Source: Candidatus Micrarchaeota archaeon (GTDB taxonomy: Archaea > Micrarchaeota > Micrarchaeia > Micrarchaeales > Micrarchaeaceae). From it: a stretch of DNA of 64,000 bases. The stretch is taken from NCBI GenBank assembly GCA_028866905.1, contig JAGWHI010000002.1:7219-71218 (forward strand). Direction: 5' to 3'. The notes below the pieces were generated by a model. That model did no database searches and was not told the DNA's origin. It saw only the letters and a list, made by a program, of their open reading frames with translations. The number at the start of each line of letters is the position of its first letter. Positions within the stretch are counted from its first letter, which is position 1. A program made the position numbers and the translations under genes. Positions 33,219 to 55,328 of this stretch are shown one piece after another.

Positions 33219-35621
33219 TCAGCCTATTCCCTTGCCGGCGTCGTCCGCGTCGATGAGCTTCAGCGAGCCTGACGAGAGGTTGAGCTTCAGCTCCTCGGCT
33301 ACCTTGCTGTGCCTCCTGTAAAGGGACTCGCGGAACTCGTCCATCTCCTCTGCGTTGAGGAACGCGAGGTAGGTGGTTGCGTCCTGATAGACCGGCATGC
33401 GCTTGAACTTGCTGGTCTTCGAGTGTATGACTATGTATGCGCGCTCGCCGTGGAAGGTAGCCACTATGTCTGCAAGGCTGCTCGAGTCCAGCTCTGTGAA
33501 GACGTACGCGTGTGTAACGAAATAGACCCTGAGCTTCTTGAATGTCGCGAGGTACGCGGCGTCGTGACCGCTCTGCTGCTCCCACGACTTCGGCGCGTAC
33601 AGCCCGTCAACCATGAGCAGATGGCCCGCGCCGGCCATCTGGTCCAGCATCATCTCGACGTTGTTCAGTGTCAGGCTGACCGGCATGCTGTTGTACCTTA
33701 TGTTGTTGGCTATAGCAACGCGGACCTCGTCGCTGGTCAGGGGCATGTACTTCCAGTGGAAGTATAGGTTCTGCTTGTCGAAGACGCCGAGGACGGTGTC
33801 GAGCTTCATCTTTATCGGTATGCTCTTCTGCTCCGGCAGGTTCGGCACGTCTATGTAGAACTCGTCGCGGGTCGGGCTCTTGACAAGGGTGACCAGCATT
33901 ATCACCACCGCAAGCACTATCGCTATCTCTATGTACTCCTTGTCTATGTGTATCACTGTGGGCGGGTTCGAGGCTATGTACCTGTAGTCGTTGGACAGCA
34001 TCAGGATCTCGAAGGTCGCGTTGCCGTACACTACCGGCGCGCCCTTCGGCAGCGTGTAGTTTATCGTGCCGTTGTAGAAAGTGCCCGACTGCCCGTAGAG
34101 GCCGTTGAGCTTTATGGTGTAGTTTATCCCGTTGAGCTGCTGGCCCGCAGAGCTGATTCCGAACAGGAAGCTGCCGGACGAGTAGTTGGCGTACTTTAGG
34201 TAGACGCTGACGTTCGGCACCGTGAAGGTCGAGGCGGCGAACTCGGAGTTGTTGAACGCCTGGAGCTTGACTATGTACCTGCCCTGGCCGAGGGCGAACT
34301 GGACGTTCTTGAAGAAAGTGAAGTTGCCGGACGCGTTGAAGTTCGAGACGTATATCGACTGCTTCGGGCTCATGTTCTGGTCGTATACAGTCAGGTGCGG
34401 CGCCACCTCGACGAGCCCCTTAGACCCGGTGAACACCTCCATGGACAGCTGCGCCGGCACGTTTGGCGTTACGTTGGACTGCATGGCCATCGTGCCGTTC
34501 GGCGCTGCGGCTGGCGTGTACCGGATGTCCTTGTAGTCGTAGTACAGCGTCCTGCCCACCTGGCTCTTTGTCGAGACTACTATGCGGCCGTAGTAGCCGT
34601 TAAGCGCAAGCTCGTTGGAATAGTTGTACGCCAGTGGTATGCCGTCCATTATCACGCCGTATGGCGCGCCCCCGCTCGCGTAGCCCTTGGTCTGCACGGT
34701 AGAGGATCCGCTCGCCGCCCTTGGCAGCCAGACAAGCCCGGAAACCGCCCTGGCTATGTCAGCGCCGGCCTCTGCCGGGGACTTCCAGCTCCCAAGGTAG
34801 TTGGAGAACGAGGCGATGTAGCCGTTGCCAGCCTTTATGTACGCTATCGGGCCGTATGTGCTGCCGTTGACGAACTGGAACGTGGCCTGGTTGTTGTAGT
34901 ACACAGGGCTCTGGTTATAGAGCAGGGGCACCGTAGCCAGGTATCCCGGTATGCCGCCCGCCGGTATCACTATCGAGCCAGGAAGCAGCACCCTGGAGAA
35001 GTTCTGGCCTACGTAGAATACGCTTGTGGACTTGGAGAGGAGGTATGCGAGCATCGTCTGGTTGCCGTGGTATCCGCTGAGCTCCGTGGAGTTTACGGGA
35101 TTGAGCATGTACCTCGGCAGCACGCCGTTGAGCACTATGAGCACCGAGTCGTTCGTTATCCTGGTGAGATTGCCCGGGTCCACAGTGACAACGTCGTACG
35201 TTGAGTTCACGAAGCCGTAGGCGTTGAGGTACGTCGTAAGGTTCGACACCACCTCGTTTATCTGGCCGCACGAGTAGCACTGGTTGCCGTAATAGAGCAG
35301 GTATACCTTGCCGGGCGGCCGCACCTTGAAGATGGTGCCGTTGAAGCCTATGCTGCTCGCGTTCTTGTAGGTGTAGTCCACCAGAGCGTACGGCGCCATG
35401 TCCGCGCCGTTGTTGTACGAGAGCAGGTCCTGGCCAGCCATTATCGCGCCTATCGATGGCGGCCCTCCTGCCTGCGGGGTCTGGTTCTGGGCCTGCGCGC
35501 CGATAACGGATATCTCGTGCGCCACGTAGGCGAACAGCCCGACGCAGACTATGACGACCGCAGCGATTATCGCTATGAAGAGCTCCTGCCTGCCGCTCAG
35601 CCTGAACCTGCCGACCTTCAT
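33219..35621 (-). CDS. 800-aa bitopic envelope protein: N-terminal anchor, sequon-rich ectodomain of about 550 aa, second TM, cytoplasmic domain of about 190 aa
   Basis: Helices ELFIAIIAAVVIVCVGLFAYV and IEIAIVLAVVIMLVTLV. Many N-x-S/T sequons in the ectodomain. It is the last gene of the minus-strand operon, and its ATG overlaps the stop of a 54-aa ORF. Confidence 0.7.
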   Translation of the reverse strand: MKVGRFRLSGRQELFIAIIAAVVIVCVGLFAYVAHEISVIGAQAQNQTPQAGGPPSIGAIMAGQDLLSYNNGADMAPYALVDYTYKNASSIGFNGTIFKVRPPGKVYLLYYGNQCYSCGQINEVVSNLTTYLNAYGFVNSTYDVVTVDPGNLTRITNDSVLIVLNGVLPRYMLNPVNSTELSGYHGNQTMLAYLLSKSTSVFYVGQNFSRVLLPGSIVIPAGGIPGYLATVPLLYNQSPVYYNNQATFQFVNGSTYGPIAYIKAGNGYIASFSNYLGSWKSPAEAGADIARAVSGLVWLPRAASGSSTVQTKGYASGGAPYGVIMDGIPLAYNYSNELALNGYYGRIVVSTKSQVGRTLYYDYKDIRYTPAAAPNGTMAMQSNVTPNVPAQLSMEVFTGSKGLVEVAPHLTVYDQNMSPKQSIYVSNFNASGNFTFFKNVQFALGQGRYIVKLQAFNNSEFAASTFTVPNVSVYLKYANYSSGSFLFGISSAGQQLNGINYTIKLNGLYGQSGTFYNGTINYTLPKGAPVVYGNATFEILMLSNDYRYIASNPPTVIHIDKEYIEIAIVLAVVIMLVTLVKSPTRDEFYIDVPNLPEQKSIPIKMKLDTVLGVFDKQNLYFHWKYMPLTSDEVRVAIANNIRYNSMPVSLTLNNVEMMLDQMAGAGHLLMVDGLYAPKSWEQQSGHDAAYLATFKKLRVYFVTHAYVFTELDSSSLADIVATFHGERAYIVIHSKTSKFKRMPVYQDATTYLAFLNAEEMDEFRESLYRRHSKVAEELKLNLSSGSLKLIDADDAGKGIG

Positions 35622-35782
35622 GCCGCTCCACCACCAACCTGCGGCTCCGAGGGCCCTGATGGCTTGGTGAGCAGCTTCACGAACAGCCTTGTTAGCAGGT
35701 TCTCCCTCTGGCCTACCCTCTTCGTTATCGCGTAGACCTTCACGTACTTGATCCTCTTGTTGATCCTCGCGGTGTAGCGCAT
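35618..35782 (-). CDS. unlisted 54-aa basic ORF translationally coupled (ATGA) to the 800-aa gene
   Basis: Manual translation gives MRYTARINKRIKYVKVYAITKRVGQRENLLTRLFVKLLTKPSGPSEPQVGGGAA. It fills the otherwise empty gap between 35621 and 35790. Confidence 0.35.
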   Translation of the reverse strand: MRYTARINKRIKYVKVYAITKRVGQRENLLTRLFVKLLTKPSGPSEPQVGGGAA

Positions 35783-35789
35783 GCGAACA

Positions 35790-36518
35790 CTAGCTCTTGA
35801 GCTCGATGTAGCCGAGCGCGGTCATCTTGTTGAGCATCTGCTCCACCCTTGGGGCGTTGAGCTTGTACGCCTTGGCGAACTCTATCACGTCTATCGAGCT
35901 GTCGTGCGACTCCAGCCATTCCTGTATCATCACCATCAGCGACTCGTCGGAGTAGGTCTCGAGCTCCTTCAGGCGCTCGTTCAGCTCCTTGTTCTCGGTG
36001 TTCAGCTGCTCCGCCTGCACCGAGAGGTTCTTGTTCGATGCGGAGAGCTCCAGGTTCATGCGCTTTATCTCGCGGTACTCGTTGAACAGCGAGTCGTAGT
36101 TGTTGAACAGCGTGCTGTAGCTCTGTGATATCGAGCCGAGCAGGTCGTCGATTACGGAATCCGCGGTCTGGAATATGTTCGTGTCGTCAACCTTGTAGAG
36201 GTCGCTGAGCAGCGATAGGATCCCGAACAGGTTCTTCAGCACGAACAGGCGGCGCATCCTCACGCTCGTGTCCGGGCCTATCGAATACTTCACTGTCACG
36301 CCGTCCTTTGCGAACTCGTATATGAAGAAGAGGAAGGGCCTGTTCTGTATGTCGTGGCTCTCTATCCTTGCCACGACTGTACGGTCCGGCTCAGCCTTCA
36401 CCCTGAACATCTGAAGGTCGGAGAGCCTCGTGGCTATCTCGTCAAAAGGTGCTAGCGCAGAGCCGCCGATCTTTATCTCCTCAACCTTCGGCTCTATCTG
36501 CGGTACCTCCTCTGCCAC
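35790..36518 (-). CDS. cytoplasmic coiled-coil protein with C-terminal winged-helix-like domain
   Basis: Heptad region NEYREIKRMNLELSASNKNLSVQAEQLNTENKELNERLKELE. The C-terminus IDVIEFAKAYKLNAPRVEQMLNKMTALGYIELK is wHTH-like. A TATA-like GGTATATATTAG lies about 40 nt upstream. Confidence 0.55.
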   Translation of the reverse strand: MAEEVPQIEPKVEEIKIGGSALAPFDEIATRLSDLQMFRVKAEPDRTVVARIESHDIQNRPFLFFIYEFAKDGVTVKYSIGPDTSVRMRRLFVLKNLFGILSLLSDLYKVDDTNIFQTADSVIDDLLGSISQSYSTLFNNYDSLFNEYREIKRMNLELSASNKNLSVQAEQLNTENKELNERLKELETYSDESLMVMIQEWLESHDSSIDVIEFAKAYKLNAPRVEQMLNKMTALGYIELKS

Positions 36519-36589
36519 TACACCTCACCGATGAAATCAGATGTATTCCAACTAATATATACCTTTCTGATAGCAATCTCTCGATTTCG

Positions 36590-36970
36590 TCAGCGTTTCT
36601 GGCCCTCGGGCTGCGCAGCCGCGCGCGGCGTCTCCACGGCCGGCATGTACCTGCCGGCGAGCAGGAGGGCGTACAGGAAAAGCGTTAGCGCTATGCCGAA
36701 CGGTATGGTCACGACGTTCAGGCCGGACGCGAAGAATAGCACAGCGGTGAATATGACGCCGAGGGCTATGTAGGCCATCTGCCTCCGCTCGAAGACCGCA
36801 CGGCTCTTGTGGTACTCCTTGTAGCAGTCCTTGCACACCACCAGCCTGTAGCCCCTCTCGTTCCTGGTAACGTTCCTCTTGAACCAGCGTATCGCGCCTA
36901 TCACGAAGTCCTCCTTCACAGGAAGGCCGTTGCGCTTCTCCCCGCATATTATGCATCGATTCTCATTCAT
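36590..36970 (-). CDS. zinc-ribbon protein with two C-terminal TM helices
   Basis: CIICGEKRNG...VCKDCYKEY (CxxC...CxxC), followed by two hydrophobic helices. Confidence 0.55.
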   Translation of the reverse strand: MNENRCIICGEKRNGLPVKEDFVIGAIRWFKRNVTRNERGYRLVVCKDCYKEYHKSRAVFERRQMAYIALGVIFTAVLFFASGLNVVTIPFGIALTLFLYALLLAGRYMPAVETPRAAAQPEGQKR

Positions 36971-36974
36971 AGCA

Positions 36975-37292
36975 TCACTCCATCTCCACAGTGGCCTTGT
37001 AAAGCCTGCCGGTCTCGGCGACTATGCGCTGCTCGTCCAGCATGTTGATCACGCTCGCGATGGTGACGTCGTCCATGCCGAGCCTCCTGAAGACGTTGGA
37101 GAGCTTGTCCCTCCTCAGCCCGCCCTTCTCCAGCATGGCGGCGAAGCTTATCACGTTCATGTGCCTGTGCACCTTCTCCATGTTCCCGAGCACTGCGCTT
37201 ATGCTCTTCTCGCTCACGCCGAACGCGGTGAGCAGGCGGCGCAGCTCTATCCTGCTTATCGTATAGGTACCAAGGTTAGACAGTCTCGACAC
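36975..37292 (-). CDS. small cytoplasmic helical protein (105 aa)
   Basis: Overlaps the 3' end of the ATPase gene by 17 nt. It contains short G-[VLM]-x3-4-[IL]-x2-V-x3-L units (GVSEKSISAVLGNM, GLRRDKLSNVFRRLG, MDDVTIASVINML) that also occur in the ATPase C-terminal tail. Confidence 0.5.
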   Translation of the reverse strand: MSRLSNLGTYTISRIELRRLLTAFGVSEKSISAVLGNMEKVHRHMNVISFAAMLEKGGLRRDKLSNVFRRLGMDDVTIASVINMLDEQRIVAETGRLYKATVEME

Positions 37293-38793
37293 CCGTTGAG
37301 GATATTATCCTGGTTATCAGCTGGTCCTCTATGCTCAGGCCCTTCAGGAAGCCGACTATGTTGTTCACCTGCACGCCGTTCGCCTTTATCAGCTGTATGA
37401 AGTCCAGCATCTTTATGCTCCTGTTCCTGCCGTCGAGCTCCGCGAACACCTGGTTGATGGAATCGGCGCCGACGTTGTACTCTATCAGCCGGTTCTTCAG
37501 CTCGTCCTTCTCGAACTGGTAGTCGCGCTGGATTATGTTCGCGGACAGCTCGCTCTGGGTGAGCACGTCCGACAGCTCTATCGTGTACACGTAGAGCGGC
37601 TCCTCTCCGTGGATCTTCTCAAGGAGGAAGGTCTCCGGGAACCTCAGCGCGGTCTGGAACGCCATCTCCACAGCGGCTTGGCCCACGCCGAACTTGCCTA
37701 TCTCCATCCTTATGAAGTTAGAGAAGTTGAGCGATCCCTGCAGGTAGTTCAGGAACTTCTCGAACTTTATCCTGAGCATGAACGTGGTGCCCACGTTGGA
37801 GAATATCGCCTCGTTTATGTCCGTCGGGTTCTGGGATGCGACTATAAGGCCGAAGTTGTACTTCCTGCCCTCTCGCACGATCATTATAGCGTCGCTCTTC
37901 TCGTCGCTCGCGACCTTCCACGCCTCGTCCAGTACTACCATCACCTTCAGCCCTTTCGTCTCGCTCCACCCCTCGCTCCTCATCCGCTCCTTGAGCGTCT
38001 GGAGTATGACAAGCGCCGCGAGCCCCCTGAACCTCTCGTCAGGCAGGCCTGACAGGTCGACATCCACGAGCCCCGACTCCGTCAGCTTTGCCAGGTCCAG
38101 GGTGCTCCTCCTTGCGAAGTAGTCCTCCCCCTCCCGCGCGAACTGCCTGAGCCTGTATATGGTGTTCTCGAGCTCTGCCGGGTACTCGTATGTCCCCTCC
38201 TGCAGCTTCTCCTCAAGCAGGGATATCACGTCGGCCAGTGTGGGCGCCTGCTTCTCCGTAGGATAGCGCTCTGCGAGCTCGAAGCCGGAGTTGACGTACG
38301 ACTGCTCCATCGCCTCCTCTGTCAGGCGCCTCTGCTCTGGGTATAGCGCTATGTCAGTCAGTATGTCGAACGAGTTCATTATCTGCTTGACGCGGTCGAG
38401 CGGCTTCATGCCAGACAGGTCCATTATGTTGATGTAGTCGCCCTTCGCGAGCGATACTATGGTGCCGCCGCTCTGCTTCACCCAGGCCTTGTACTCCCCG
38501 GCCCAGTCTATTATCACGGCGTTGGTGCCCCAGACGTAGCTCGCCCTTATTATCAGCGACTTCACGAAGAAGCTCTTGCCGGAACCCGTTATACCGACAA
38601 CGGCTATGTGGGGGTTGGTCAGGTTCAGGAAGGACCATGTGAACGGAACGTGGAATATCTTGGTGGTGCCGACGTAGAGCGACTGGAACGGGTCCGACAG
38701 CAGCACCTCGGCCGGGGGCTCAGGAGGCCTTGATATGAACGACCTCCTGGCTATCTCGTCGCTCATTATGTGCTGGAACCTTACTAGCGTCAT
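37276..38793 (-). CDS. VirB4/TrbE/TraC-like (HerA-FtsK superfamily) P-loop ATPase lacking the VirB4 N-domain
   Basis: Walker A AVVGITGSGKSFFVKS at about aa 75, then AVIIDWAGEY, Walker B VMVVLDEAWKVAS and REGRKYNFGLIVASQNPTDI. The DEAW and RK-x-N...(A/T)SQ blocks are VirB4-like rather than FlaI/PilB-like. Confidence 0.75.
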   Translation of the reverse strand: MTLVRFQHIMSDEIARRSFISRPPEPPAEVLLSDPFQSLYVGTTKIFHVPFTWSFLNLTNPHIAVVGITGSGKSFFVKSLIIRASYVWGTNAVIIDWAGEYKAWVKQSGGTIVSLAKGDYINIMDLSGMKPLDRVKQIMNSFDILTDIALYPEQRRLTEEAMEQSYVNSGFELAERYPTEKQAPTLADVISLLEEKLQEGTYEYPAELENTIYRLRQFAREGEDYFARRSTLDLAKLTESGLVDVDLSGLPDERFRGLAALVILQTLKERMRSEGWSETKGLKVMVVLDEAWKVASDEKSDAIMIVREGRKYNFGLIVASQNPTDINEAIFSNVGTTFMLRIKFEKFLNYLQGSLNFSNFIRMEIGKFGVGQAAVEMAFQTALRFPETFLLEKIHGEEPLYVYTIELSDVLTQSELSANIIQRDYQFEKDELKNRLIEYNVGADSINQVFAELDGRNRSIKMLDFIQLIKANGVQVNNIVGFLKGLSIEDQLITRIISSTGVETV

Positions 38794-38835: not shown

Positions 38836-39651
38836 CTACGACTGTATGTCGAAGTTGGTTGCGGCCTCCTCGTACGTCGTGGGGAGCGAGAAGTTGAACT
38901 GGAAGAGCGTGTAGAGCTCCCTGCCGACTATGCGCGCGAGCTGCACGTCCATGCCCGACATCGCCACCTCGAGCTGCTTTATCTGCGCGCTCAGCAGGTC
39001 TAGCGCCGCCTTCTCGCTCACGCCGACAGCGGTTGTCTCGAAGTACATTATCGTGGCTATCGGCTTCTCGCCCTCGCCTATGCGCGCTATCTTCGTCTGG
39101 AGCACGTTTATCTTCCTCTGTATCTCTGTGACCGTCATCTCGTTCACGTTCTGCGCCTGCATCGCCCTGGACAGCTGGAACTCCTGGAAGGAGCGCTTGC
39201 CCTCCAGCTCGTCGCGCACCTTCTGGACGTCGAGGCCTGCGGACAGCACATGATACTTGAACGGGAAGCCGATGTTCATCACGGCGCGTTCCCACGTCTC
39301 GGGGGCCTGCACAGCCTTGAGCTCCTGGTCCTGCTGCTGTTGCTCCGCCTTGAACGTGTACGCGAACACGTTGGCCGTTACGTATCCGGTCGCGTAGAAC
39401 AGCCCGTTGACGTTCTTCACTACAGCGTCCTGGGTCTTGACTATCCTGTAGTCCTTCGCCGGCTGGAAGCTCACCCCCAGCAGGTTGGTGACGAGCGGGA
39501 ATATCACGAAGTCCGCCCAGTTCATCACGAGAAGGACGCCGAGCGCCACCAGTATGAAGACCGCGCCGATGAGGCTGTATGCGCCGCCGCCCATCGATCC
39601 CAGCGACGACAGCGCCACCACTATCACGAGCCCGCAGAACGCCAGATACAC
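38836..39651 (-). CDS. 2-TM protein with cytoplasmic domain of about 200 aa; paralogue of 39669..40502
   Basis: Start trimmed to the GTG after a GAGGGA purine patch, since the longer ORF overlaps the upstream gene. Two N-terminal helices are followed by KTQDAVVKNVNGLFYATGYVTANVF... and a coiled-coil-like C-terminus. Confidence 0.5.
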   Translation of the reverse strand: MYLAFCGLVIVVALSSLGSMGGGAYSLIGAVFILVALGVLLVMNWADFVIFPLVTNLLGVSFQPAKDYRIVKTQDAVVKNVNGLFYATGYVTANVFAYTFKAEQQQQDQELKAVQAPETWERAVMNIGFPFKYHVLSAGLDVQKVRDELEGKRSFQEFQLSRAMQAQNVNEMTVTEIQRKINVLQTKIARIGEGEKPIATIMYFETTAVGVSEKAALDLLSAQIKQLEVAMSGMDVQLARIVGRELYTLFQFNFSLPTTYEEAATNFDIQS

Positions 39652-39668: not shown

Positions 39669-40502
39669 TTATATCACCTCCTCCTGGACGTTCTTGCTTA
39701 TCTGCTCGCTTATAGTCGAGAACGGAATCAGGTATTCCGGCTCTATGTAGTTGAGCAGCTCCTTGCCCGTTACTATGCTCGGCGTAACGCCGAAGGTCGA
39801 GCCTATGCCCGAAAGCAGCTCCCTGGCGTCCTGCTGCGCTATGCTCACGGCCTCGTACTCCTTGGCGCCCCGCGCAGACACTGTGGCGTAGTGCGTCAGC
39901 TCGAACGACTGGACTCCGCCTATGTGGTCGAGTATGTTGTGCCACATCGCCAGCTTGCCGCGCACCCTCTCTATGTCGCCCGGCGACCCGTTGTTCTGCA
40001 CGAGCTGGACCTCCTCGTTCTCGACCTTGCTTATCGTGTCGCGCAGCTGCTGGATGTAGTAGTCCTTGTTCATCATGTGGAGCTCAGCGGTGTACCTGGC
40101 CGGCGACTTGCTTATGCCCACAAGCCTGCTCACACGCCTGGAGAAGTCGAGCTTCTCATCGTCGCTCATCTCTGTCGCGGACCTGTATACGGGTATGCGT
40201 ATGTAGACCGTAGCTATGTAGTCCTCGCCGTCCTTCCTGATCACAGAGTCTGATGCGGTGGACAGCCAGTATGCGTCCTCGTTGCTAAGCACTATGTTGC
40301 TGCTCCTCTGCTGCATGAACGGCAGCAGCAGGTAGGTGTAGTATCTTGATGAGAACGCCAGGATGTCAAGCGCCATCGAAACTAGCAGCAGAAGCAGCTT
40401 TGCCGGTGCCGGTAATATGGTCAGAGGCGCTGATCCGGCTATTATCAGGACGACGACAGAGGATATGAAAAATCCCAGGAAGACGAATATCTTCTTGTCC
40501 AT
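39669..40502 (-). CDS. 2-TM protein with cytoplasmic domain of about 200 aa (VirB3 plus VirB4-N-domain-like, tentative)
   Basis: Two N-terminal helices, then SDSVIRKDGEDYIATVYIRIPVYRSATEMSDDEKLDFSRRVSRLV....YTAELHMM. This has the same order of elements as the start of the VirB4/TrbE N-domain. A TATA-like GGTATAAATAGG lies about 38 nt upstream. Confidence 0.55.
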   Translation of the reverse strand: MDKKIFVFLGFFISSVVVLIIAGSAPLTILPAPAKLLLLLVSMALDILAFSSRYYTYLLLPFMQQRSSNIVLSNEDAYWLSTASDSVIRKDGEDYIATVYIRIPVYRSATEMSDDEKLDFSRRVSRLVGISKSPARYTAELHMMNKDYYIQQLRDTISKVENEEVQLVQNNGSPGDIERVRGKLAMWHNILDHIGGVQSFELTHYATVSARGAKEYEAVSIAQQDARELLSGIGSTFGVTPSIVTGKELLNYIEPEYLIPFSTISEQISKNVQEEVI

Positions 40503-47768: not shown

Positions 47769-50504
47769 TCACGCGAGCTTGAACTTGCCTAGCGACAGCT
47801 TGTTCCTTATCGTGCCGCCCAGCACATTTGCAATCGATTCTATAATAACGACCATTATCACCAGGTCGAAGATGAAGAGGATGAACTGAAGCAGCATCCC
47901 GAACGAGTATCTGGTCAGTGCGTTGATCGGGGGATACACGCTGGCGGCCTGCGGCAGCAGGTAATAGCCGTTGGTCTGCTCGGAGTACCCGCAGAACGAC
48001 CCGAATATGGTCGATATGCCGTCCTGCCATCCCGGCCCTGACGACGGGGAGCCCGCATAACTGTACACCGCCTGCGCGCCGGATACGAAGGGCCAGAGCA
48101 CGGGTATGTTTCCGCAAGGCAGCGGAGGGTTCGGTGGGTTCTGCAGCATCAGGAACGAAGTTGCGTAGTTTGTCAGCGGGATATTGAAGAGCAGCATCAG
48201 CGTCGGGTATATTATCGATATCCCTATGCCTAGCGCTATCATCGTGCCGCCCACTGGCCTGAGGAACGGGAATGCCCTTAGCACTATGCCGATAGGCAGC
48301 AGTATTCCGAGCCCTATGAACGCCATGAGCGGGAGCAGGCTGAGCTGTATCGAGGCGAGCAGCATCACAGGCACTATGATAAGCGAGAGCATCGATGTCA
48401 GGAATGATATGCCGCCAGTATCGCCGCTGTCAAGCACAGTGTTTTGGTAGATGTATTGCTTGTAGACCCCGAAAGTCACGTCCACGAGATTGGGGTACGG
48501 GGGCGGCAATATCGGATAGTCCGCATACACATCTATCTGCAGCGACTTGATCGCCGAGTAGGCGAGCGATATGCCTAGCGATTCGCTGAATGCCGACTGC
48601 GCGGCCAGGGACTGGGGCAGCAGGTACTGGTTTGCGACAGCCGCATAGAGGTTGCCAAGATTCGTTGCAAGGGAAGCGGACTGGGCGACCGTGCTGTTGG
48701 AATACAGGCCTGACGGCTGCTGCGGAGTTATGCCGACCAGGCTGACAGCGACACTGCCAAGTATCACTATGACGGAAAACACTATCGCTATCACGAAGAG
48801 GCTCTTCGTCGCCTCCCAGAGCTCGGTCTTGTACCAGTTCTTGAGCCCCTCGACCCTCAGCACCTCTCCCACCATGTAGGCTATAGCGACGAACAGTAGC
48901 GACAGCATAAGGCCTATGAATGCGAATGGCAGCGCGCTTGTCACGCATTGGCCGAAGAATTGCGGGAATATCTGGAATGTTCCGCCGACCGCCCTGCCGA
49001 AACTGCTGAAGCTACACGCCTGTGTTATGCCCGCGCCAGTAACGTTGACGGGCATACCCTGTATCACTGTGAGGGTCGCCGATTCCGTATTTACGCCGTC
49101 GCTTGCCGTGATCGTGTGCGTGCCTGGCGTGGTGTTTACGCCCTTCGTGGTGTTCGCGACGGCCAGGGAATAGTTGAAGGAGCTCTGGAATGCTGAGCTT
49201 ACCGGTATCTTGGCGATTAGCTTGCCGTCGTACTTAAGGGTTATGTTTGTCGCAAGCGCGGAAAATCCGCTGCCGGAGATCGTAACGCTGCCGCCCCAAT
49301 ACGATGACGTGGGACTGATGGTTAACGATGGCGTGACATTGAAGTACGCTACCGCAAAAGGCGGAGGCGCTGATGGGGTGGGCCCTTGGGTCGGTGTTGC
49401 TGTAGCGGATTGCGTTGTCGGCGTAGCGTTCGATGTCCCGACTTGGGCCACTATCTCGTGCTTCCCTGAGCCTGACTGGGGAATAGGGAACACAGCCACG
49501 AACGAGCCAGGCAAAGGATCAGAAGTGGAGTTGGTTACCACCTTCTGCGGTATTGTTGCTGCCTCAACGCCATCGTATGTTATGTTAACAATCGCAGACG
49601 CAGGGAACCATACCCCAGATATTACTGCCACAGTTCCTACATGGCCCTTCGACGGCGTTACGGTTATGTACGGCGTCGGTATTGGGCCTACGGGCTGCTT
49701 CTGTGTCGTGTATAGGCCAGACCAGACCGGCTCCCCCTGCTGCGTAAATGTGAGGTTGGATCCGACAACGAACCCGTTCGTCCTGTTGCCTATCTCTCCG
49801 ACACCGAACGGATAGCTCTGCTGCACCGATTGCGCGGTTGTGTAGACGCTTCCGTTGCTTACGGGAACGAAGGCCGTACCGTTGTAATAGCTTACGTTAG
49901 TGAACTCGACGACCTTGAGCAGTTCCCCTGTGGCGTTCGTGCCATTGTACTCCACTGAAGCGACCGGCTGGCCGCCTGAGGATTTGGTAGCGTTGATCGT
50001 TGCGCTGCCTATCTGCGCGCCGTTGAAGTACACGCTCCAGCGGTTTCCGTTCGCCTTTATCGCGTAGCTGTTAATCGTGCCGTCCGGGCCTGCGGATCCG
50101 TCTGGCCCGTAATTCGTATAAACCTGCTGGCCGGACCCAGGCTGGTAGCTCCAGAACCAGGCAGCCTGTCCGTGGGTTAGGTGCACAGTCCCGGTGCATC
50201 CGAGCGCGCTGCAGCCGGTCGGGAACTGGCCGGTCTGGTTTGGGAAAAGGTAACCCGCCTTTATAGAGGCGCCGTTTGATAGCGATTCGCCGATCCATGC
50301 GCTGGTCGTGTTGCCCTGCTGGCCCAGGTTCTGCACCACAGTGACTATGTTGGTGCTCGCGCCGTAGTTCGGTGAGCTCCCGTTCGCGAATATGCCAGTC
50401 TGCACATCCTGGGGGGATGATGAATTCGCGTATGCGCTGTTCGAGAGGAGCGCGAGCAGCACGACTGCCGCTAAAAGTAGCGAGGCTCCCTCCCTGACAG
50501 GCAT
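47769..50504 (-). CDS. 911-aa fusion of a signal peptide plus ectodomain of about 500 aa (lectin-like N-domain and two IPT/Ig-like modules) with a C-terminal membrane domain, paralogue family member 6
   Basis: Signal LLLAAVVLLALLSNSAYA. Ig-like modules TVTPSKGHVGTVAVISGVWFPASAIVNITYDG and LTISPTSSYWGGSVTISGSGFSALATNITLKYDG. Membrane part carries GIVLRAFPFLRPVGGTMIALGIGISIIYP. Confidence 0.7.
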   Translation of the reverse strand: MPVREGASLLLAAVVLLALLSNSAYANSSSPQDVQTGIFANGSSPNYGASTNIVTVVQNLGQQGNTTSAWIGESLSNGASIKAGYLFPNQTGQFPTGCSALGCTGTVHLTHGQAAWFWSYQPGSGQQVYTNYGPDGSAGPDGTINSYAIKANGNRWSVYFNGAQIGSATINATKSSGGQPVASVEYNGTNATGELLKVVEFTNVSYYNGTAFVPVSNGSVYTTAQSVQQSYPFGVGEIGNRTNGFVVGSNLTFTQQGEPVWSGLYTTQKQPVGPIPTPYITVTPSKGHVGTVAVISGVWFPASAIVNITYDGVEAATIPQKVVTNSTSDPLPGSFVAVFPIPQSGSGKHEIVAQVGTSNATPTTQSATATPTQGPTPSAPPPFAVAYFNVTPSLTISPTSSYWGGSVTISGSGFSALATNITLKYDGKLIAKIPVSSAFQSSFNYSLAVANTTKGVNTTPGTHTITASDGVNTESATLTVIQGMPVNVTGAGITQACSFSSFGRAVGGTFQIFPQFFGQCVTSALPFAFIGLMLSLLFVAIAYMVGEVLRVEGLKNWYKTELWEATKSLFVIAIVFSVIVILGSVAVSLVGITPQQPSGLYSNSTVAQSASLATNLGNLYAAVANQYLLPQSLAAQSAFSESLGISLAYSAIKSLQIDVYADYPILPPPYPNLVDVTFGVYKQYIYQNTVLDSGDTGGISFLTSMLSLIIVPVMLLASIQLSLLPLMAFIGLGILLPIGIVLRAFPFLRPVGGTMIALGIGISIIYPTLMLLFNIPLTNYATSFLMLQNPPNPPLPCGNIPVLWPFVSGAQAVYSYAGSPSSGPGWQDGISTIFGSFCGYSEQTNGYYLLPQAASVYPPINALTRYSFGMLLQFILFIFDLVIMVVIIESIANVLGGTIRNKLSLGKFKLA

Positions 50505-50538
50505 GCTAGAGTTTCCAAGACAAGGTATTTATCCCTGA

Positions 50539-51273
50539 TTATCGCTTGAGCAGGGGGAATTTCTTCATGTACATCTGGCTCTGCAGCACCACTATGAACG
50601 GCAGTATGAAGAGCCCGTTGAACACCAGGAGCGCATACCTTGAGGCCGCTGTCCCGCCGAACGCAATGAAGAGCAGGTCGAACACGCTCACGAGCAGTAT
50701 GACCACTACAATCCAGAGCAGAGTGTAGTCGAGGCGCTTCGCGAAGAAGTTGGCGCTCGCCTGCATGGCGTGCACCAGGCGCTTCTCGTCTATCACAATG
50801 GAAGACGGCGCGTAGAGGAAGAACGGGAAGGCGATCAGCGCTATTATTGAGGTGACCACCCCAGTCAGCGACGGGACAACCGCATAGGAGGCCATGGCGG
50901 CGAGAACTATTATTATAGTGTAGAGCAGGAGGGCCAGGAAGACCTTGCCCGTGTACTTCTCGAGGCTCCTTATCACGTCGCTCTTTATCTTGGTGCTCGT
51001 CCTCGTGTGCTTGACCACCACGTTTATCATCACCATGGCGAAGCTGAAGAAGAGCAGCGAGAAGAGAGTTGCGGCCACTATGACGGCAGTGTCTGCCAGG
51101 CTCAGGCTTCCCAGGCTAGCCAGCCTGACGAAGGTTCCGCCGACGTCGTTGTACGTCGGGAAGGCCGCGAAGAGCGGTATGAGGAGCGCTATCACGAACG
51201 ACAGCGAGAAGAGCAGCAGGAGCTTTATGTTGCCGAGGTAGGTGTTGACCGCGTGCATGACTACGTTCGCCAT
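50539..51273 (-). CDS. polytopic membrane protein (244 aa), first gene of the minus-strand operon
   Basis: Six hydrophobic helices with no family motif. A TATA-like TTTTATACC lies about 30 nt upstream on the minus strand. Confidence 0.55.
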   Translation of the reverse strand: MANVVMHAVNTYLGNIKLLLLFSLSFVIALLIPLFAAFPTYNDVGGTFVRLASLGSLSLADTAVIVAATLFSLLFFSFAMVMINVVVKHTRTSTKIKSDVIRSLEKYTGKVFLALLLYTIIIVLAAMASYAVVPSLTGVVTSIIALIAFPFFLYAPSSIVIDEKRLVHAMQASANFFAKRLDYTLLWIVVVILLVSVFDLLFIAFGGTAASRYALLVFNGLFILPFIVVLQSQMYMKKFPLLKR

Positions 51274-51361: not shown

Positions 51362-51375
51362 ATATATAAATATTA
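51362..51375 (+). promoter_or_regulatory. TATA box ATATATAAATATTA about 27 nt upstream of the ATG at 51395
   Basis: The position and composition fit an archaeal promoter driving a leaderless or near-leaderless mRNA for the repeat protein. Confidence 0.4.
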
Positions 51376-51394
51376 TCTATGCGGCTATTTTATC

Positions 51395-54300
51395 ATGGGA
51401 AACGGGATGGCGCCCGTCAGGAGAGCGTTGCTGTTGGCCATTGCAATGGTGGTCTCTCTAGCGCTCAGCGCGACTGTCGTTTACGCCCAGGGCACGCTCG
51501 GGGGGCAGATGACGATAACCCCGCAGAACCCGGTAATAACAATAGGGCAGCAGGACACCATATCGCTCAGCGGCCAGGTCACAAACGGCACGCAGCCCTT
51601 CTCTTTCGAATGGTTTGTCCAGAATCCCGGGGCAAACAGCTATGTTCCGCTCTCTTCTCAGAACGGGGCCGTATCCATAGCGGCCACCCAGGCATCCCAG
51701 CTCGGCACTTACAGCTTCAAGTTCGTGGTAACAGACGCTAACGGCAACCAGCTGACATCCAATATCGCAACCGTGCAAATCGTCAGTTCGGTGGCCTCCT
51801 CGGCCAATGTGACGGTCAGCCCGCCGTCTGGGACGCTTAAGCTCGGCAGCAGCATCACGCTCGCAGCGAGCGGAGCGCCGATAACCGCAGGGTCTTCCAA
51901 CGGATGGAATTTCCAGTGGTACGTGCAGCCGCCCGGATCTTCGACTTACCAGCTGATCGGCGGCGCGACCTCTTCGTCCTTCATAGTTATAGCGTCAAGC
52001 ACCTTTGTCGGAACTGGAGTCAACTACTATTCGCAGACGGGCACGTACAACTTCGAGATAATAGCCTCGAAGGGCTCGACTAGCGTTACCTCAGCGCCTG
52101 CTACGATCACGATCGTTCCGACAATCCAGACGCCGCTGGTTGGCTCTATAGTGGCGAGTCCGCAGCTGTCATCGATAATACAGGGAAACAGCGACACGAT
52201 AAACATACAGGGCACTGTCACAGGGGGGCAGCCGCCTTACACCACGTCATGGTACGTCGAGAACCCCGGCAGCACGACATGGCAATTCCTTTCAAACTTG
52301 AACAACAACCTGCCATTCACGACCTCGACCAGCACTAAGCCAGGAATCTACAACTTCAAGTTCATAGTGAGCGACAGCACAGGAGCCAACGACAGCTCCA
52401 ACATAGCCTCTGTCGATGTGACGCCCTCTAACGGGGGGCCGGGAGTGAACAGGACAGCGCCGTTCCAGGGTTCGGTAAGCGTCACGCCCATCGGCACTTC
52501 GGTGGGCCAGGGTTCATCCGTGGTCCTCAACGGCTACGAGTTCGTAAGCGGCGGGAACAAGCCCTACACCTTCGCGTGGTACTACCAGCCGCCGGGATCT
52601 GGATCGTTCGAGGTTGCGCCAGGACAGAACGGCGGAAGCTCGTACACTTTCACGACTTCGTCTTTCACACCTACAGGAAGCTACATATTCGAATACAGGG
52701 CGTACGACGCGAACCTTGCAGAGGTCGATTCCAACGAGGCGTTCGTGACTGTTACGACCCCGACGACAGGACCAGGCACATCGCCCTCTGTGCAGATAAC
52801 GCCCCAGAGCTCGATAATAACTTCAGGGCAGCCGGTGTACTTCAGCGCCCAGCTCATAAACGACAATTCCGGTGCTACGCACTACCAGTGGTACGAGAAC
52901 GGCCAGTCGCTGGCGGGGGAGACGGACGGTTCCTATACCTTCTGGTCCACGTCCCAGGCCCCGGGAACATACACGTTCTATGCGGCTGTGACCGACGGTT
53001 CGGGAAGGGTGTTCAACTCCACAAACGTGACAGTGGTAGTGCAGCAGAGCGCAGGAGTCAACGGGCAGGGGCTCACCGGCACGATCAACGTTTACACAGG
53101 CAAGATGACGGACACAAACGGAAACATAGAGTACCTGTCGTACGTCACGCTTGGCCAGGGCGGCACGCAGACTATAACCGCCAACGACACCATATCGGGC
53201 GGCACTCCGCCGATTAGCTTCCAGTGGTACATTGAGGGGCCGAACGACTACGCTTTCAGGCCGATATCCGGCGCGAACAACGCGTACAGCTATCAGTTCG
53301 CGACCTCCAGCGCAACGCAGTCTGGGACCTACAAGTTCCAGCTCATAGCTACAGACCAGAACGACAACCAGGTCACGTCCACGGTCGCGTTCGTCAACGT
53401 CATTGGCGGCTCCACGTCAGGCGGTTCCACTACGACCATACCGTCTACATCAGGCTCGTCCAACCTTGCTGGCCAGATAACCATATCGTCCACCTCCTCG
53501 AGCGTGCAGTACGGCGGCAGCGCCACATTCACTGTGAGCGGCCAGCTGAGCGGAGGCGTATCGCCATACACTTACGAGTGGTACATACAGAACCCCAACT
53601 CAGGGACATGGCAGACGTACGCCTCTGGCAACGGCAACCTCACATTCACGCCGACCAGCACGCAGCAGGGGCTGTACAGCTTCGAGTTCGTGGTAACCGA
53701 TGCGACAGGGAAGACGGTGGCATCCAACATAGAGTCCATAAACGTGCTCGCGGGCCCGGGAAGCAGCCAGAGTACGACCACAATGCCGCAGCAGGGCGGA
53801 GGATCGCAGTCGCTGCAGGGCGCGATAACGATAACGCCTGCGAGCGGAACGCTCGTGATTGGCGGGCCTACCGACACCATATCTGTGAGCGGAAGCCTGA
53901 GCGGCGGCAAGGCGCCATATACCTTCCAATGGTACGAACAGCTCCCGGGTAGCAGCAACTGGCAGCCGCTCTCGTCCCTCAACGGAGCGATCACTGTAGG
54001 TGCTACGTCAGGCAGCACCACGCCAGGCGCCTATGGTTTCCAGTTCGTTGTCACTGACAGCTCGGGCCAGACCATAGTTTCCAACCAGGCGACTGTGCAG
54101 ATAGTGAGCGCTGGCAGCACGACTACTATAACTGGTGGCGGCGGCAACACTGGCGGCACCGTAAGCCCAGCGGAACGCTGCAGCGGAGGATCGATAACGG
54201 CCAGCTCGACAGCTTCATCGCTCAGCGTGGGCCAGAGCGCGACGCTCTCGGAATACACCACAATAAACATCAACAACTGCACCACTGAGGGGTGGTATGT

Positions 54301-54802
54301 CCAAAACCCGTACACCAGCTCGTACCAGCAGATCTCCCCTGGCGTAGGGCCGTACACTTTCTATGCTACCGGCGGGACTGGAATCGGAACCTTCAACTTC
54401 GAGTACATAATCTACAACGCCAGCGGCCAGGTCGCGGCGTCTAACCCAGTAGCCATAACGGTCGTGGGTCCGCAGGGGTCCGGCAGTGGCAGTGGCTCTG
54501 GCAGCGGATCAGGTAGCGGTTCAGGACAGGCCAGCATATCGGCTTCGGCATCGGAGGTCGCCGCAGGGAGTTCGGTGACAGTGTCTGCCAGCGGATACTC
54601 CTCAAGCTCCACCTACCAGTGGCAGGTGATGGCGCCTGGCGGAAGCTGGGAGAACATCCCAGGAGCGACATCGCAATCGTACACCTTCCTTGCAGGCTAT
54701 GGCCCGTTCTCCACATACGGGACCTACCAGTTCCAGCTGGTTGTCACGCCAAGCACAGGAGGCAGCTACACCACTTCCTCGGTTTCCGTTTCTGTTCAGT
54801 GA
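51395..54802 (+). CDS. secreted 1135-aa protein with about ten tandem Ig-like repeats and a (GS)8 linker; putative adhesin or surface fibre
   Basis: Signal peptide MGNGMAPVRRALLLAIAMVVSLALSATVVYAQG. About ten units of 95-105 aa share P-[YF]-[TS]-F-[QE]-W-Y-x-Q-x-PG...W/Y-Q...G-x-Y-x-F-x-[FL]-[VI]-[VA]-[TS]-D. No C-terminal TM or sorting signal. Confidence 0.8.
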   Translation: MGNGMAPVRRALLLAIAMVVSLALSATVVYAQGTLGGQMTITPQNPVITIGQQDTISLSGQVTNGTQPFSFEWFVQNPGANSYVPLSSQNGAVSIAATQASQLGTYSFKFVVTDANGNQLTSNIATVQIVSSVASSANVTVSPPSGTLKLGSSITLAASGAPITAGSSNGWNFQWYVQPPGSSTYQLIGGATSSSFIVIASSTFVGTGVNYYSQTGTYNFEIIASKGSTSVTSAPATITIVPTIQTPLVGSIVASPQLSSIIQGNSDTINIQGTVTGGQPPYTTSWYVENPGSTTWQFLSNLNNNLPFTTSTSTKPGIYNFKFIVSDSTGANDSSNIASVDVTPSNGGPGVNRTAPFQGSVSVTPIGTSVGQGSSVVLNGYEFVSGGNKPYTFAWYYQPPGSGSFEVAPGQNGGSSYTFTTSSFTPTGSYIFEYRAYDANLAEVDSNEAFVTVTTPTTGPGTSPSVQITPQSSIITSGQPVYFSAQLINDNSGATHYQWYENGQSLAGETDGSYTFWSTSQAPGTYTFYAAVTDGSGRVFNSTNVTVVVQQSAGVNGQGLTGTINVYTGKMTDTNGNIEYLSYVTLGQGGTQTITANDTISGGTPPISFQWYIEGPNDYAFRPISGANNAYSYQFATSSATQSGTYKFQLIATDQNDNQVTSTVAFVNVIGGSTSGGSTTTIPSTSGSSNLAGQITISSTSSSVQYGGSATFTVSGQLSGGVSPYTYEWYIQNPNSGTWQTYASGNGNLTFTPTSTQQGLYSFEFVVTDATGKTVASNIESINVLAGPGSSQSTTTMPQQGGGSQSLQGAITITPASGTLVIGGPTDTISVSGSLSGGKAPYTFQWYEQLPGSSNWQPLSSLNGAITVGATSGSTTPGAYGFQFVVTDSSGQTIVSNQATVQIVSAGSTTTITGGGGNTGGTVSPAERCSGGSITASSTASSLSVGQSATLSEYTTININNCTTEGWYVQNPYTSSYQQISPGVGPYTFYATGGTGIGTFNFEYIIYNASGQVAASNPVAITVVGPQGSGSGSGSGSGSGSGSGQASISASASEVAAGSSVTVSASGYSSSSTYQWQVMAPGGSWENIPGATSQSYTFLAGYGPFSTYGTYQFQLVVTPSTGGSYTTSSVSVSVQ
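54476..54526 (+). repeat. imperfect GGY-AGY/TCN hexanucleotide tract encoding (Gly-Ser)8-Gly
   Basis: Read directly as GGGTCCGGCAGTGGCAGTGGCTCTGGCAGCGGATCAGGTAGCGGTTCAGGA. It sits between repeat 9 and repeat 10 of the large protein. Confidence 0.9.
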
Positions 54803-54870
54803 CGGGCACTACCCCTATCCCTTCCCGTGGCCCATCGGCAATACCGACCGCGCTGGCGCTACCTGCCATG

Positions 54871-54894
54871 GAGAATAAATGAAGGAAAAGAAAC
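54871..54894 (-). terminator. T/pyrimidine-rich tract directly after the stop of the 143-aa gene
   Basis: The minus strand reads GTTTCTTTTCCTTCATTTATTCTC, starting 3 nt after the TGA. Confidence 0.3.
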
Positions 54895-54896
54895 GC

Positions 54897-55328
54897 TCAG
54901 CAGCTGCCCTGCGGGAGCGTGCCGTTGTTCGCTATCTGCTGGAGGATGTATGGCGCAGCAACAGCGATTATCACTCCGACTATTCCACCCATGATCATAC
55001 CCATGCCGTATCCGGTCACGGTTCCCTTCGTCTGCGCCGGAAGCACGTGCGCGCTTGCGTAAAGCGCAGCGCCGAGGATCATGAGCACCAGTCCGAGTAT
55101 GAATATGACGCTCTTGACCGTTGTGCATATAGTGGTTATGGTGTTCTGGACGTTTGTTATTCCGCCCTGGCCCACCGTAGAGCCGCCGGTGCCGACGGTC
55201 GAGCTGCCCGAAACCGTGACCTGTCCGTAAACGGCCAGCGTTCCGAACATCGTGGCGAACATCGTAAGCAGAAATGCGTATCTCGTGAATAGGTCGTATC
55301 CTTGTGCCAGAATGTTGGATATCTTCAT
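54897..55328 (-). CDS. small protein with signal/anchor helix plus two-helix hairpin; VirB2/TrbC/CedA1-like pilin candidate
   Basis: 143 aa. N-terminal hydrophobic YAFLLTMFATMFGTLAVYGQ, Gly/Thr/Ser linker, helix KSVIFILGLVLMILGAALYA, short polar loop with K, then helix GMGMIMGGIVGVIIAVAAPYIL. This is the architecture of conjugative pilins. Confidence 0.5.
   Translation of the reverse strand: MKISNILAQGYDLFTRYAFLLTMFATMFGTLAVYGQVTVSGSSTVGTGGSTVGQGGITNVQNTITTICTTVKSVIFILGLVLMILGAALYASAHVLPAQTKGTVTGYGMGMIMGGIVGVIIAVAAPYILQQIANNGTLPQGSC

Follow-up and report, generated by a model that had tools for sequence, protein, structure and literature searches.

The 64,000-nt stretch of Candidatus Micrarchaeota archaeon analysed here (the window; GCA_028866905.1, contig JAGWHI010000002.1, positions 7,219 to 71,218 of the forward strand) harbours a cluster of 17 genes: (i) 16 co-directional minus-strand genes between 33219 and 51273 (g01, g01b and g02 to g15; open reading frame (ORF) listing and translation), and (ii) g17 at 54897-55328, separated from g15 by the giant, divergently oriented plus-strand gene g16 (Table 1). 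On balance, the locus is best regarded as a core, vertically inherited trans-envelope machine of Micrarchaeota, belonging to the same evolutionary class as type IV secretion/conjugation systems (T4SS) and the archaeal Ced system. An earlier note on this DNA had assigned the locus to the conjugation-derived Ced/Ted/T4SS class, as a chromosomal system devoid of a relaxase and unusual in its gene complement; this central idea is supported by the present analysis and withstood the tests named against it (affiliation of the ATPase, relation of the membrane proteins to transporters, mobility of the locus), which are dealt with below.

The count of 16 minus-strand genes given in that note holds provided that the 54-aa ORF at 35618-35782 (g01b) is included, at the place of which relatives carry a 45-49-aa gene. 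Tight spacing, claimed for most of these genes, applies to 9 of the 15 junctions, which overlap or have gaps of ≤10 nt (ATGA-type overlaps at g11/g10, g10/g09 and g01b/g01); the other gaps comprise 17-78 nt. The ORFs of g06 and g09 are over-extended at their starts, the probable start positions being 39651 and 42633, respectively. Base composition is like that of the flanks, as already noted previously (GC content of 0.55-0.59 within the cluster and 0.53-0.60 outside). Upstream, genes for threonyl-tRNA synthetase (ThrRS) and a carbamoyltransferase are oriented divergently from the cluster, and the downstream flank encodes leucyl-tRNA synthetase (LeuRS), superoxide dismutase (SOD), topoisomerase VI subunit B (TopoVI-B), an aspartyl-tRNA synthetase (AspRS)-like protein, isocitrate dehydrogenase (IDH) and PrpD. 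The single tRNA gene of the window is located 28 kb from the cluster, and an Rfam search of the window yielded no match. In agreement with the earlier note, scans of the cluster and of the flanking genes covered detected no domain of a relaxase, VirD4, an integrase or a replication protein, and neither flanking direct repeats nor att repeats were found around the cluster. Among proteins of a Candidatus Micrarchaeota metagenome-assembled genome (MAG), KGH98_00850 and KGH98_00890 match the products of g09 and g17 at 100% identity, so that the source is a DPANN micrarchaeon rather than a member of Thermoplasmata.

Table 1. Genes of the cluster and the interspersed gene g16, in the order of transcription of the minus strand (TM, transmembrane)
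Gene	Position	Strand	Product and features
g17	54897..55328	-	143 aa; hydrophobic leader, S/T/G-rich linker, conserved two-helix hairpin; first cluster gene
g16	51395..54802 (ORF opens 51326)	+	Giant secreted PKD/Ig-repeat protein; strain-specific insertion, non-core
g15	50539..51273	-	244 aa, polytopic, ~6 TM (TM profile); conserved
g14	47769..50504	-	CedA/VirB6-like channel paralogue 6; extra sequon-rich N-terminal ectodomain of ~500 aa
g13	46562..47764	-	CedA/VirB6-like channel paralogue 5; positional orthologues in 55 loci
g12	45014..46552	-	CedA/VirB6-like channel paralogue 4, larger extracellular loops; positional orthologues in 58 loci
g11	43814..45013	-	CedA/VirB6-like channel paralogue 3; positional orthologues in 59 loci
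g10	42630..43817	-	CedA/VirB6-like channel paralogue 2; positional orthologues in 60 loci
g09	41500..42633	-	CedA/VirB6-like channel paralogue 1; member modelled with AF2
g08	40581..41465	-	Type-IV-pilin-like (class III signal) plus LamG; accessory insertion, non-core
g07	39669..40502	-	2 TM plus cytoplasmic domain of ~220 aa; stand-alone CedB/VirB4-type N-terminal module
g06	38836..39651	-	Second stand-alone CedB/VirB4-type N-terminal module, 2 TM plus domain
g05	37276..38793	-	505-aa P-loop ATPase of the HerA/VirB4/CedB superfamily; core plus C-terminal helical domain
g04	36975..37292	-	105 aa, cytoplasmic; free copy of the ATPase C-terminal domain
g03	36590..36970	-	126 aa; Cys4 zinc ribbon plus two TM helices (sequence, TM profile)
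g02	35790..36518	-	242 aa, cytoplasmic; coiled coil plus C-terminal winged-helix-like domain
g01b	35618..35782	-	54 aa, small, highly basic (ORF listing)
g01	33219..35621	-	800 aa, bitopic; TM, sequon-rich ectodomain of ~520 aa, TM, cytoplasmic part of ~215 aa

A search covering a single genome for each GTDB species yielded at least 80 loci with the ATPase g05, nearly all labelled Micrarchaeota, the exceptions being a few probably mis-binned records. Across these species-level loci, which include those of the cultured A_DKE and ARM-1, the ATPase shares 65-79% identity with g05 of the window; its best 120 database matches are 71-80% identical and, as far as named, originate almost all from Micrarchaeia MAGs. 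The Micrarchaeota loci share the order g15-g14-...-g09-g07-g06-ATPase-g04-g03-g02-g01b-g01, which is constant wherever the genes are present and is thus seen in about 55-80 of 81 loci, depending on the gene. Comparison of every window protein with 81 loci (tblastn) revealed g01, g02, g03, g04, g06 and g07 each in 71-80 of them (g03 in 79, g02 in 72, g01 in 71 at ~38% identity), the six membrane paralogues g09-g14 in 55-64 (most absences coinciding with contig ends), and g15 in 43 (median identity 46%, position upstream of g14 kept); the g01b homologue occupies the same position in 49 loci. In two loci (L083, L084) the cluster starts, as in the window, with a g17 homologue beside a divergent carbamoyltransferase or ThrRS gene, and ends at a convergent TopoVI-B gene, which in the window is 11 kb further off. 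Identities between the window and L084 amount to 76.7% for the ATPase, 59.5% for ThrRS and 52-59% for g06, g07, g02 and g15; as judged from such values, the ATPase is under purifying selection like a housekeeping gene.

An integrated mobile element bounded by att sites had been named in the earlier note as an outcome that would speak against its proposal. Relatives, however, hold the cluster at a stable chromosomal site beside ThrRS, carbamoyltransferase and TopoVI-B, with no integrase and no att repeats. From this comparative sequence evidence, the cluster is a vertically inherited core locus and not a mobile element. In case of ARM-1 (L075, AP024486.1 416860-438353), ATPase, g04, g03, g02, g01b and g01 adjoin TopoVI-B. 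Within the stretch covered, none of the ORFs upstream matched g06, g07 or the channel profile, which suggests that the cluster is split or reduced in the ARM-1 lineage.

The ATPase g05 contains all motif strings listed in the earlier note (GITGSGKS, IIDWAGEY, LDEAWK and RKYNFGLIVASQNPTD) and, as stated there, is the sole NTPase of the cluster (Pfam, NCBIfam). It possesses neither a TM segment nor an N-terminal domain. Pfam matches comprise DUF87 (HerA-central, 2.8e-17), AAA_10 (1.2e-13) and the TraG P-loop (2e-11), and NCBIfam matches the VirB4-like CD1110 (70.8 bits), CedD (70.1 bits), CedB (64.4 bits), TraC (63.3 bits), HerA (53 bits) and VirB4_CagE (39 bits). HerA models of PADLOC score up to 76 bits, and the g05 family profile yields 94-96 bits with HerA structures and 92 bits with VirB4 (4ag5) in the PDB. 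Since the scores are nearly equal and those in NCBIfam far below the curated cut-offs (~10% of the Ced equivalog cut-offs), the ATPase core alone is not assignable to VirB4 over HerA. Thus, the designation VirB4-type, derived in the earlier note from this core, cannot be based on the core by itself, which is equidistant from HerA and VirB4/CedB. Robust grouping with HerA-NurA was not observed either, and the nearest outside relatives match the CedB model over its full length.

These outside relatives allow the ATPase to be placed by its partners. The g05 family is compact (77 clusters at E ≤1e-30 in an exhaustive representative search), and its next neighbours are proteins of ~690-913 aa consisting of two N-terminal TM helices, a ~280-aa domain and then the ATPase. 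The fused neighbours match the CedB model end to end (119-141 bits), and the locus of one of them encodes, in this order, an 84-aa CedA1-family protein, a 291-aa CedA (also matching Pfam CedA1), a 65-aa protein and the ATPase. Profile-profile comparison, using families built from the Micrarchaeota loci, aligned the N-terminal region of the CedB-like fused ATPases with g07 (hhalign 96.7%, E 5e-10; BLASTP of g07 versus P0172, E 0.001) as well as with g06 (hhalign 88.9%, E 2.8e-7), the two being paralogous to each other (hhalign 99%). A single-copy homologue of g06/g07 is located directly upstream of the ATPase in four further loci (L086, L113, L114, L115), and g04 corresponds to positions 414-518 of the ATPase profile (hhalign 98%, E 1.5e-12). 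The split ATPase and the 2-TM proteins likened in the earlier note to VirB3 plus the VirB4 N-domain are therefore supported, g06 and g07 being homologous to the CedB-like N-terminal TM-plus-domain module; this homology points to the ATPase as a split CedB/VirB3-VirB4-type protein with a duplicated N-module. By the profile scores, g05 is homologous to CedB at the superfamily level, not as an equivalog. In line with a link to Ced and T4SS, a tblastn search of plasmids gave no matches other than conjugation ATPases of the TraC/VirB4 type. In Sulfolobales, CedB and CedD cover different portions of the VirB4 N-domain (PMC11868833).

Two further relatives of g05 (P0122 and P0123, 52-53% identical) contain large inteins, inserted immediately behind Walker A in one case and immediately ahead of Walker B in the other, and carry a g04-like domain fused at the C-terminus (BLASTP with g04, 4e-13).

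The six membrane proteins g09-g14 are indeed paralogous, as had been proposed (BLASTP among them, E 1e-9 to 1e-3; hhalign 97.5-100% over the full length), with the C-terminal ~400 aa of g14 being homologous to g09-g13 (hhalign 99.7-100%). The g14 protein has 22 N-x-S/T sequons; its orthologues measure ~430 aa and hence are devoid of the ~500-aa ectodomain present in the window. Throughout the phylum, every one of the six is matched by a separate orthologue at the corresponding position, suggesting non-redundant roles, e.g., within a hetero-oligomer. Neither g09-g14 nor 60 members of the g09 family matched any Pfam or NCBIfam entry, be it a VirB6-type or a transporter family; accordingly, the possibility raised in the earlier note that these proteins represent an unrelated transporter family was not substantiated.

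The region around one plasmid VirB4 match contains no annotated VirB6; reference profiles were built from 15 CedA-like and 14 CedA1-like proteins from metagenomic CedB-like loci, in place of bacterial VirB6. The merged g09-g14 profile aligned with the CedA-like profile over 177 columns (hhalign 80.2%, E 1.4e-5), the alignment with g09 alone being collinear at 11.7%. Both sides of the merged alignment hold a common loop motif of the form PF-R-x(2-4)-R-x(2)-G...P (consensus AiPFRlGRrlGsyLMa...P in CedA and RaxPF-tRxxGGxlIA...yP in the paralogues). The N-terminal hairpin of the merged profile also matched the CedA1 profile (hhalign 78.4%), echoing the published relationship between the CedA N-terminus and CedA1 (PMC9905601). 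The AF2 model of g09 (from 60 sequences; pLDDT 85, pTM 0.77) is an all-helical membrane protein with helices of 33-60 residues. Among 350,542 PDB chains, Foldseek ranked TrwI/VirB6 from the stalk of the R388 T4SS first (7o3v_G; E 0.081, prob 0.90) and chain H of a second R388 stalk entry (8rtd_H) 7th. Profiles and model taken together make a moderately strong, albeit not conclusive, case for g09-g14 as CedA/VirB6-class proteins.

The hairpin protein g17 had been termed VirB2-like; the label draws on architecture and gene position and has no backing from detectable homology. Its family comprises 55 members, those with a named source all being Micrarchaeota, with a few labelled Marsarchaeota. 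Conserved are the hairpin loop and the near-invariant Cys65 and Cys143, while the S/T/G-rich linker is variable. The AF2 model is a helical hairpin (pLDDT 68) with only generic helical-hairpin matches in Foldseek (pore-forming toxins, DgkA) and no solved pilin among them. Comparison of g17 with the N-termini of the membrane paralogues was negative (hhalign), except for a weak match to g13 (62-66% over ~42 columns) that is not relied on. All in all, g17 is a candidate pilin or CedA1-like subunit. One of the two cysteines is located just before the first hairpin helix and the other is the last conserved residue; a disulfide joining both ends of the mature protein is conceivable and, by our own analogy, would resemble the cyclised TrbC/VirB2.

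Simpler relatives of the cluster provide a possible evolutionary context. In case of L114, whose ATPase is 36% identical to g05 of the window, an 80-aa g17 homologue (93.5%), one channel homologue (98.5%) and one g06/g07 homologue (99%) precede the ATPase, followed downstream by a g02 homologue (99%) and a TM-plus-ectodomain protein (all hhalign). This gene order is the same as that of CedA1, CedA and CedB, and the position of the g17 homologue supports a pilin-like role for g17. L086 and L115 retain the ATPase-proximal half (g06/g07-like gene, ATPase, g02-like gene), the g02 homologues scoring 98-99.7% across L086, L114 and L115. L115 additionally carries a g03-like gene, the ribbon and TM portions of which are separated, and a g01 homologue (99.5%), whereas the ATPase of L116 represents a third, divergent clade and adjoins a channel homologue (97.2%). 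These relatives suggest that the Micrarchaeota cluster arose by expansion from a simpler system of the Ced-like kind, in which six channel genes took the place of one and two N-modules that of a single one.

Complete Ced-like modules (CedA1, CedA, a small protein and a CedB-like protein) were also encountered on ~25 metagenome contigs from soil and sediment (L085, L087-L112), several of which have conserved downstream genes for proteins of ~119 and ~435 aa. The CedB-like P0161 appears, as read by eye, to end in a winged helix and a PD-(D/E)xK-like motif.

The conserved proteins g01 (26 sequons), g01b, g02, g03 and g15 have no known-family match (Pfam, NCBIfam; PADLOC for the proteins scanned), apart from coiled-coil matches of g02 and a faint match of g02 to EAP30 (ESCRT-type winged helix) in Pfam. 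An assignment of g01 or g14 as S-layer protein was rejected, because the published Micr_00292 carries PF05123 (10.1101/2021.04.28.441871), which no cluster protein matches. The earlier note had further counted a LamG prepilin and a giant Ig fibre among the parts of the system. The domains and the signal are confirmed: g08 has a QSAMEYL class-III-type N-terminus and matches Laminin_G_3 (Pfam, 5.5e-16) as well as, weakly, TafC (NCBIfam), and g16 matches K319L-like PKD (1.6e-19) and Ig_3 (2.3e-16) in Pfam and contains the internal DNA repeats D1 and D3. However, neither is a conserved part. g08 was found in only 9 of the 81 loci, g09 and g07 being direct neighbours in those inspected, and g16 in only 2 of 81 (tblastn); in L083 and L084, no g16 separates g15 from the g17-like gene. 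By their distribution, g08 and g16 are accessory surface proteins inserted in this strain.

Several further genes of the window deserve mention. A 295-aa polytopic protein (27945-28832, minus strand) displays D...R-x-V-P and GEGD motifs and sub-threshold Pfam matches to Peptidase_A24 (E 0.0024) and the archaeal A24 C-terminal domain (E 0.084); on these grounds it is probably a divergent prepilin peptidase, fitting the class-III-signal protein g08 nearby. The exosortase/archaeosortase domain (Exosortase_EpsH, 2.7e-19) of a 513-aa protein (14635-16176, plus strand) is relevant to the anchoring of surface proteins in this organism. The TopoVI-B (20292-21914, plus strand) and AspRS-like (16173-17672, minus strand) genes lie ~11-17 kb from the cluster in the window but directly flank g01 in L001, L083 and L084, so that ~11 kb are inserted or rearranged between them and the cluster in the window. 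This extra interval carries LeuRS, SOD, the above peptidase-like gene and two adjacent genes for soluble paralogues of 493 and 489 aa (28861-30342 and 30346-31815, both minus strand; BLASTP 1e-37), each internally duplicated, for which neither a family match nor a homologue across the 81 loci was found. The segment 2001-4000, with a GC content of 0.435 compared to about 0.55-0.59 elsewhere, and with a gene for an AsnC-type helix-turn-helix protein (1910-3301) and tRNA-Cys at 5188 alongside, may be a small island.

Among known systems, the cluster most closely parallels Ced (crenarchaeal exchange of DNA; CedA, CedA1, CedA2, CedB, CedD/CedE; Sulfolobales and metagenomic loci) and the related Ted, both of which combine VirB4-, VirB6- and VirB2-like parts without a relaxase (PMC9905601). 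It shares with Ced the chromosomal location and the absence of a relaxase, the adjacency of the g05 family to CedB-like proteins in sequence space together with a homologous N-terminal TM-plus-domain module, channel proteins with a probable remote homology to CedA and a common loop motif, and, in the minimal relative, the order of small hairpin protein, channel and ATPase. Duplication of ATPase and channel paralogues is likewise known in Ced, as exemplified by CedD and CedE (PMC11868833). In contrast to Ced, the ATPase of the cluster is split from its N-module and the latter is duplicated, six channel paralogues stand against the one or two of Ced, the hairpin protein bears a leader and lacks detectable similarity to CedA1, and five extra conserved components (g15, g04, g03, g02 and g01) are encoded. 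Moreover, the cluster occurs in DPANN and Ced in Thermoproteota, and the cluster is not known to be connected with UV-induced DNA repair. HerA, ParA and Rad50, which often neighbour the TedA/TedB/TedC genes of Ted in Thermoproteales, were not found in the window cluster (Pfam).

A VirB4-superfamily motor and VirB6-like polytopic channel proteins are also features of bacterial T4SS (monoderm MPF-FATA, Patescibacteria). The T4SS of Patescibacteria resembles the cluster further in having a separate protein (TrsD) homologous to the N-terminal region of VirB4 and in being kept in the core genome of an ultra-small epibiont, where this chromosomal system is essential (PMC12102498). Differences from T4SS are the lack of VirD4, relaxase, VirB8, VirB1 and VirB11 matches in the cluster, the putative nature of the pilin link, the archaeal envelope (S-layer, N-glycosylated ectodomains) and the non-mobile nature of the cluster. 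The rvh T4SS of the obligately host-associated Rickettsiales shows a tandem VirB6-like expansion, some members with large added domains (PMC2653234, PMC7648143), but is a bacterial, diderm system with full VirB/D4 scaffold that secretes effectors, which leaves a parallel in organisation only. With HerA-NurA and HerA defence systems the cluster has the P-loop core of the HerA/FtsK superfamily in common (comparable scores), whereas nuclease and defence partners are lacking and the membrane partners are homologous to Ced components. The arCOG01314 secretion system (Makarova et al. 2015, PMC5898192) was discarded as a candidate, as it uses a MoxR ATPase and von Willebrand A (vWA) proteins, absent in the cluster. 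Judged by model scores and gene content, the cluster falls short of equivalog-level membership of either Ced or VirB/D4. No description of the cluster was found in the searchable literature, the papers on Mia14, A_DKE, ARM-1 and Micrarchaeota comparative genomics being silent on it.

Given a trans-envelope machine of the Ced/T4SS class, its evolution and operation may be envisaged as follows. The g05 ATPase has lost its membrane-anchoring N-module, now encoded apart in two copies (g06, g07), and the single CedA/VirB6-type channel of simpler relatives has apparently given rise to six distinct paralogues, g09-g14, in an order fixed phylum-wide. The g05 protein, presumably a hexamer, would be tethered to the membrane via g06 and g07 onto the hetero-oligomeric g09-g14 channel. 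Driven by ATP, it could move a polymer through this channel, extrude or retract a g17 filament, or do both, with g17 either being extruded as filament or forming part of the channel. On the outside, the glycosylated ectodomain of g01 (in this strain also that of g14) may bridge the 20-25 nm space to the S-layer, corresponding to the pseudo-periplasm reported for A_DKE (10.1101/2021.04.28.441871). On the cytoplasmic side, the winged-helix (g02), zinc-ribbon (g03) and basic (g01b) proteins may handle the substrate. The most likely function would be import or exchange of DNA or other macromolecules at host contact, a view suggested by the analogous cases of Ced (PMC9905601, PMC11868833) and of the T4SS that is essential to Patescibacteria (PMC12102498).

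Electron cryotomography (cryo-ET) of ARM-1 revealed an unidentified 21-nm barrel-shaped envelope complex docking host nanotubes (PMC11329633), and one may speculate that this barrel is formed by the cluster proteins, although ARM-1 retains just the part from the ATPase to g01 at this locus. A hetero-hexameric ring of six VirB6/CedA-like subunits under a hexameric ATPase, together with the g01 ectodomain, would then constitute a receiving port pulling in host DNA or macromolecules and essential for episymbiosis; in this specific form, the proposal is a long shot.

Alternatively, the cluster could encode merely a surface filament or adhesion device, i.e., a g17 pilus or tube for host attachment with nothing passing through, which is considered unlikely. 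Such a role would agree with g17 being a conserved, leader-bearing hairpin at the place of the CedA1 pilin gene in Ced loci. Furthermore, VirB4-type ATPases drive pilus biogenesis in T4SS. Filamentous connections between ARMAN and Thermoplasmatales have been reported (cited in PMC5498576, PMC11329633), but the intercellular tubes of ARM-1 were judged to be host-derived (PMC11329633) and adhesion in Micrarchaeota is already served by two type IV pilus systems (PMC5498576). No solved pilin was found to be homologous to g17, and the conservation of g02, g03 and g01b rather suggests handling of a substrate.

A similarly low probability is attributed to a different envelope function of a HerA/FtsK-type motor, such as protein export (of effectors or S-layer components), membrane or envelope biogenesis or chromosome handling at division, in which case the likeness to Ced and T4SS would be at the superfamily level only. 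Besides the equidistance of the ATPase core from HerA and VirB4, this would be compatible with the housekeeping-level conservation, the inteins of relatives, the absence of T4SS/Ced family matches for g01, g01b, g02, g03 and g15, and the faint matches of g02 to ESCRT-type winged helices. It is opposed by three independent links of the partners to Ced, namely N-module, channel and gene order, and by the cluster containing no known division, Sec or S-layer genes (PF05123 unmatched).

A HerA-based DNA-repair or anti-phage defence module, as prompted by the DUF87/HerA matches of g05 and by PADLOC HerA models reaching 76 bits, is largely refuted and very improbable: no NurA, Mre11, Rad50, Sir2, DUF4297 or other defence partner was found (Pfam, NCBIfam, PADLOC), nine other proteins (seven of the cluster, two of the flanks) had no PADLOC match, the conserved partners are membrane proteins, and the phylum-wide, syntenic conservation is unlike that of defence islands. 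Least probable, and largely refuted as well, is the transfer module of an integrated conjugative element or decayed plasmid, as might be supposed from a VirB4-like ATPase amid many membrane proteins and from the speculation in the Mia14 paper that membrane-protein-rich islands are conjugative elements (PMC5498576), since distant genomes agree in gene order and in the adjoining genes (ThrRS, carbamoyltransferase, TopoVI-B), orthologues diverge in step with housekeeping genes, GC content equals that of the flanks, and no integrase, relaxase, type IV coupling protein, replication gene, flanking direct repeats or adjacent tRNA was found.

The assignment to the Ced/T4SS class as such has to be weighed against several observations that speak against it. 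All NCBIfam scores of g05 are far under the curated cut-offs (for CedB, 64 bits versus 700), and its core scores equally against HerA and VirB4. The homology of the channel proteins to CedA/VirB6 is remote, the 80% requiring the merged profile and g09 by itself scoring ~12%, and the Foldseek match of g09 to VirB6 is weak (E 0.08, TM-scores 0.25-0.33). For g17, homology to CedA1 (hhalign 0.1-0.2%), VirB2 or solved pilins was not detectable. Equivalents of VirB8, VirB1 or a coupling protein were not found among all cluster proteins (Pfam/NCBIfam), VirB11 likewise being unmatched, and ARM-1 carries only the ATPase-to-g01 half at this locus.

Being unable to synthesise nucleotides, amino acids or lipids, DPANN archaea like the Micrarchaeota must draw on their host. 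To our knowledge, no machinery by which DPANN obtain host material has been identified. The cluster is a concrete candidate for such uptake, being phylum-wide, conserved at the level of housekeeping genes, ATP-driven and akin to the sole archaeal systems with a known role in DNA transfer from cell to cell. Its architecture, with six fixed channel paralogues and an ATPase apart from its duplicated N-module, represents a new case of remodelling within the T4SS class. Since the cluster is present in the cultured A_DKE and ARM-1, one of them with an unassigned envelope complex in cryo-ET, the hypothesis is directly testable. The parallel to the domesticated chromosomal T4SS of Patescibacteria would indicate that conjugation-derived machines were retained convergently in the two ultra-small radiations, and should the cluster indeed serve as a receiving port, it would be the archaeal counterpart of that essential system.

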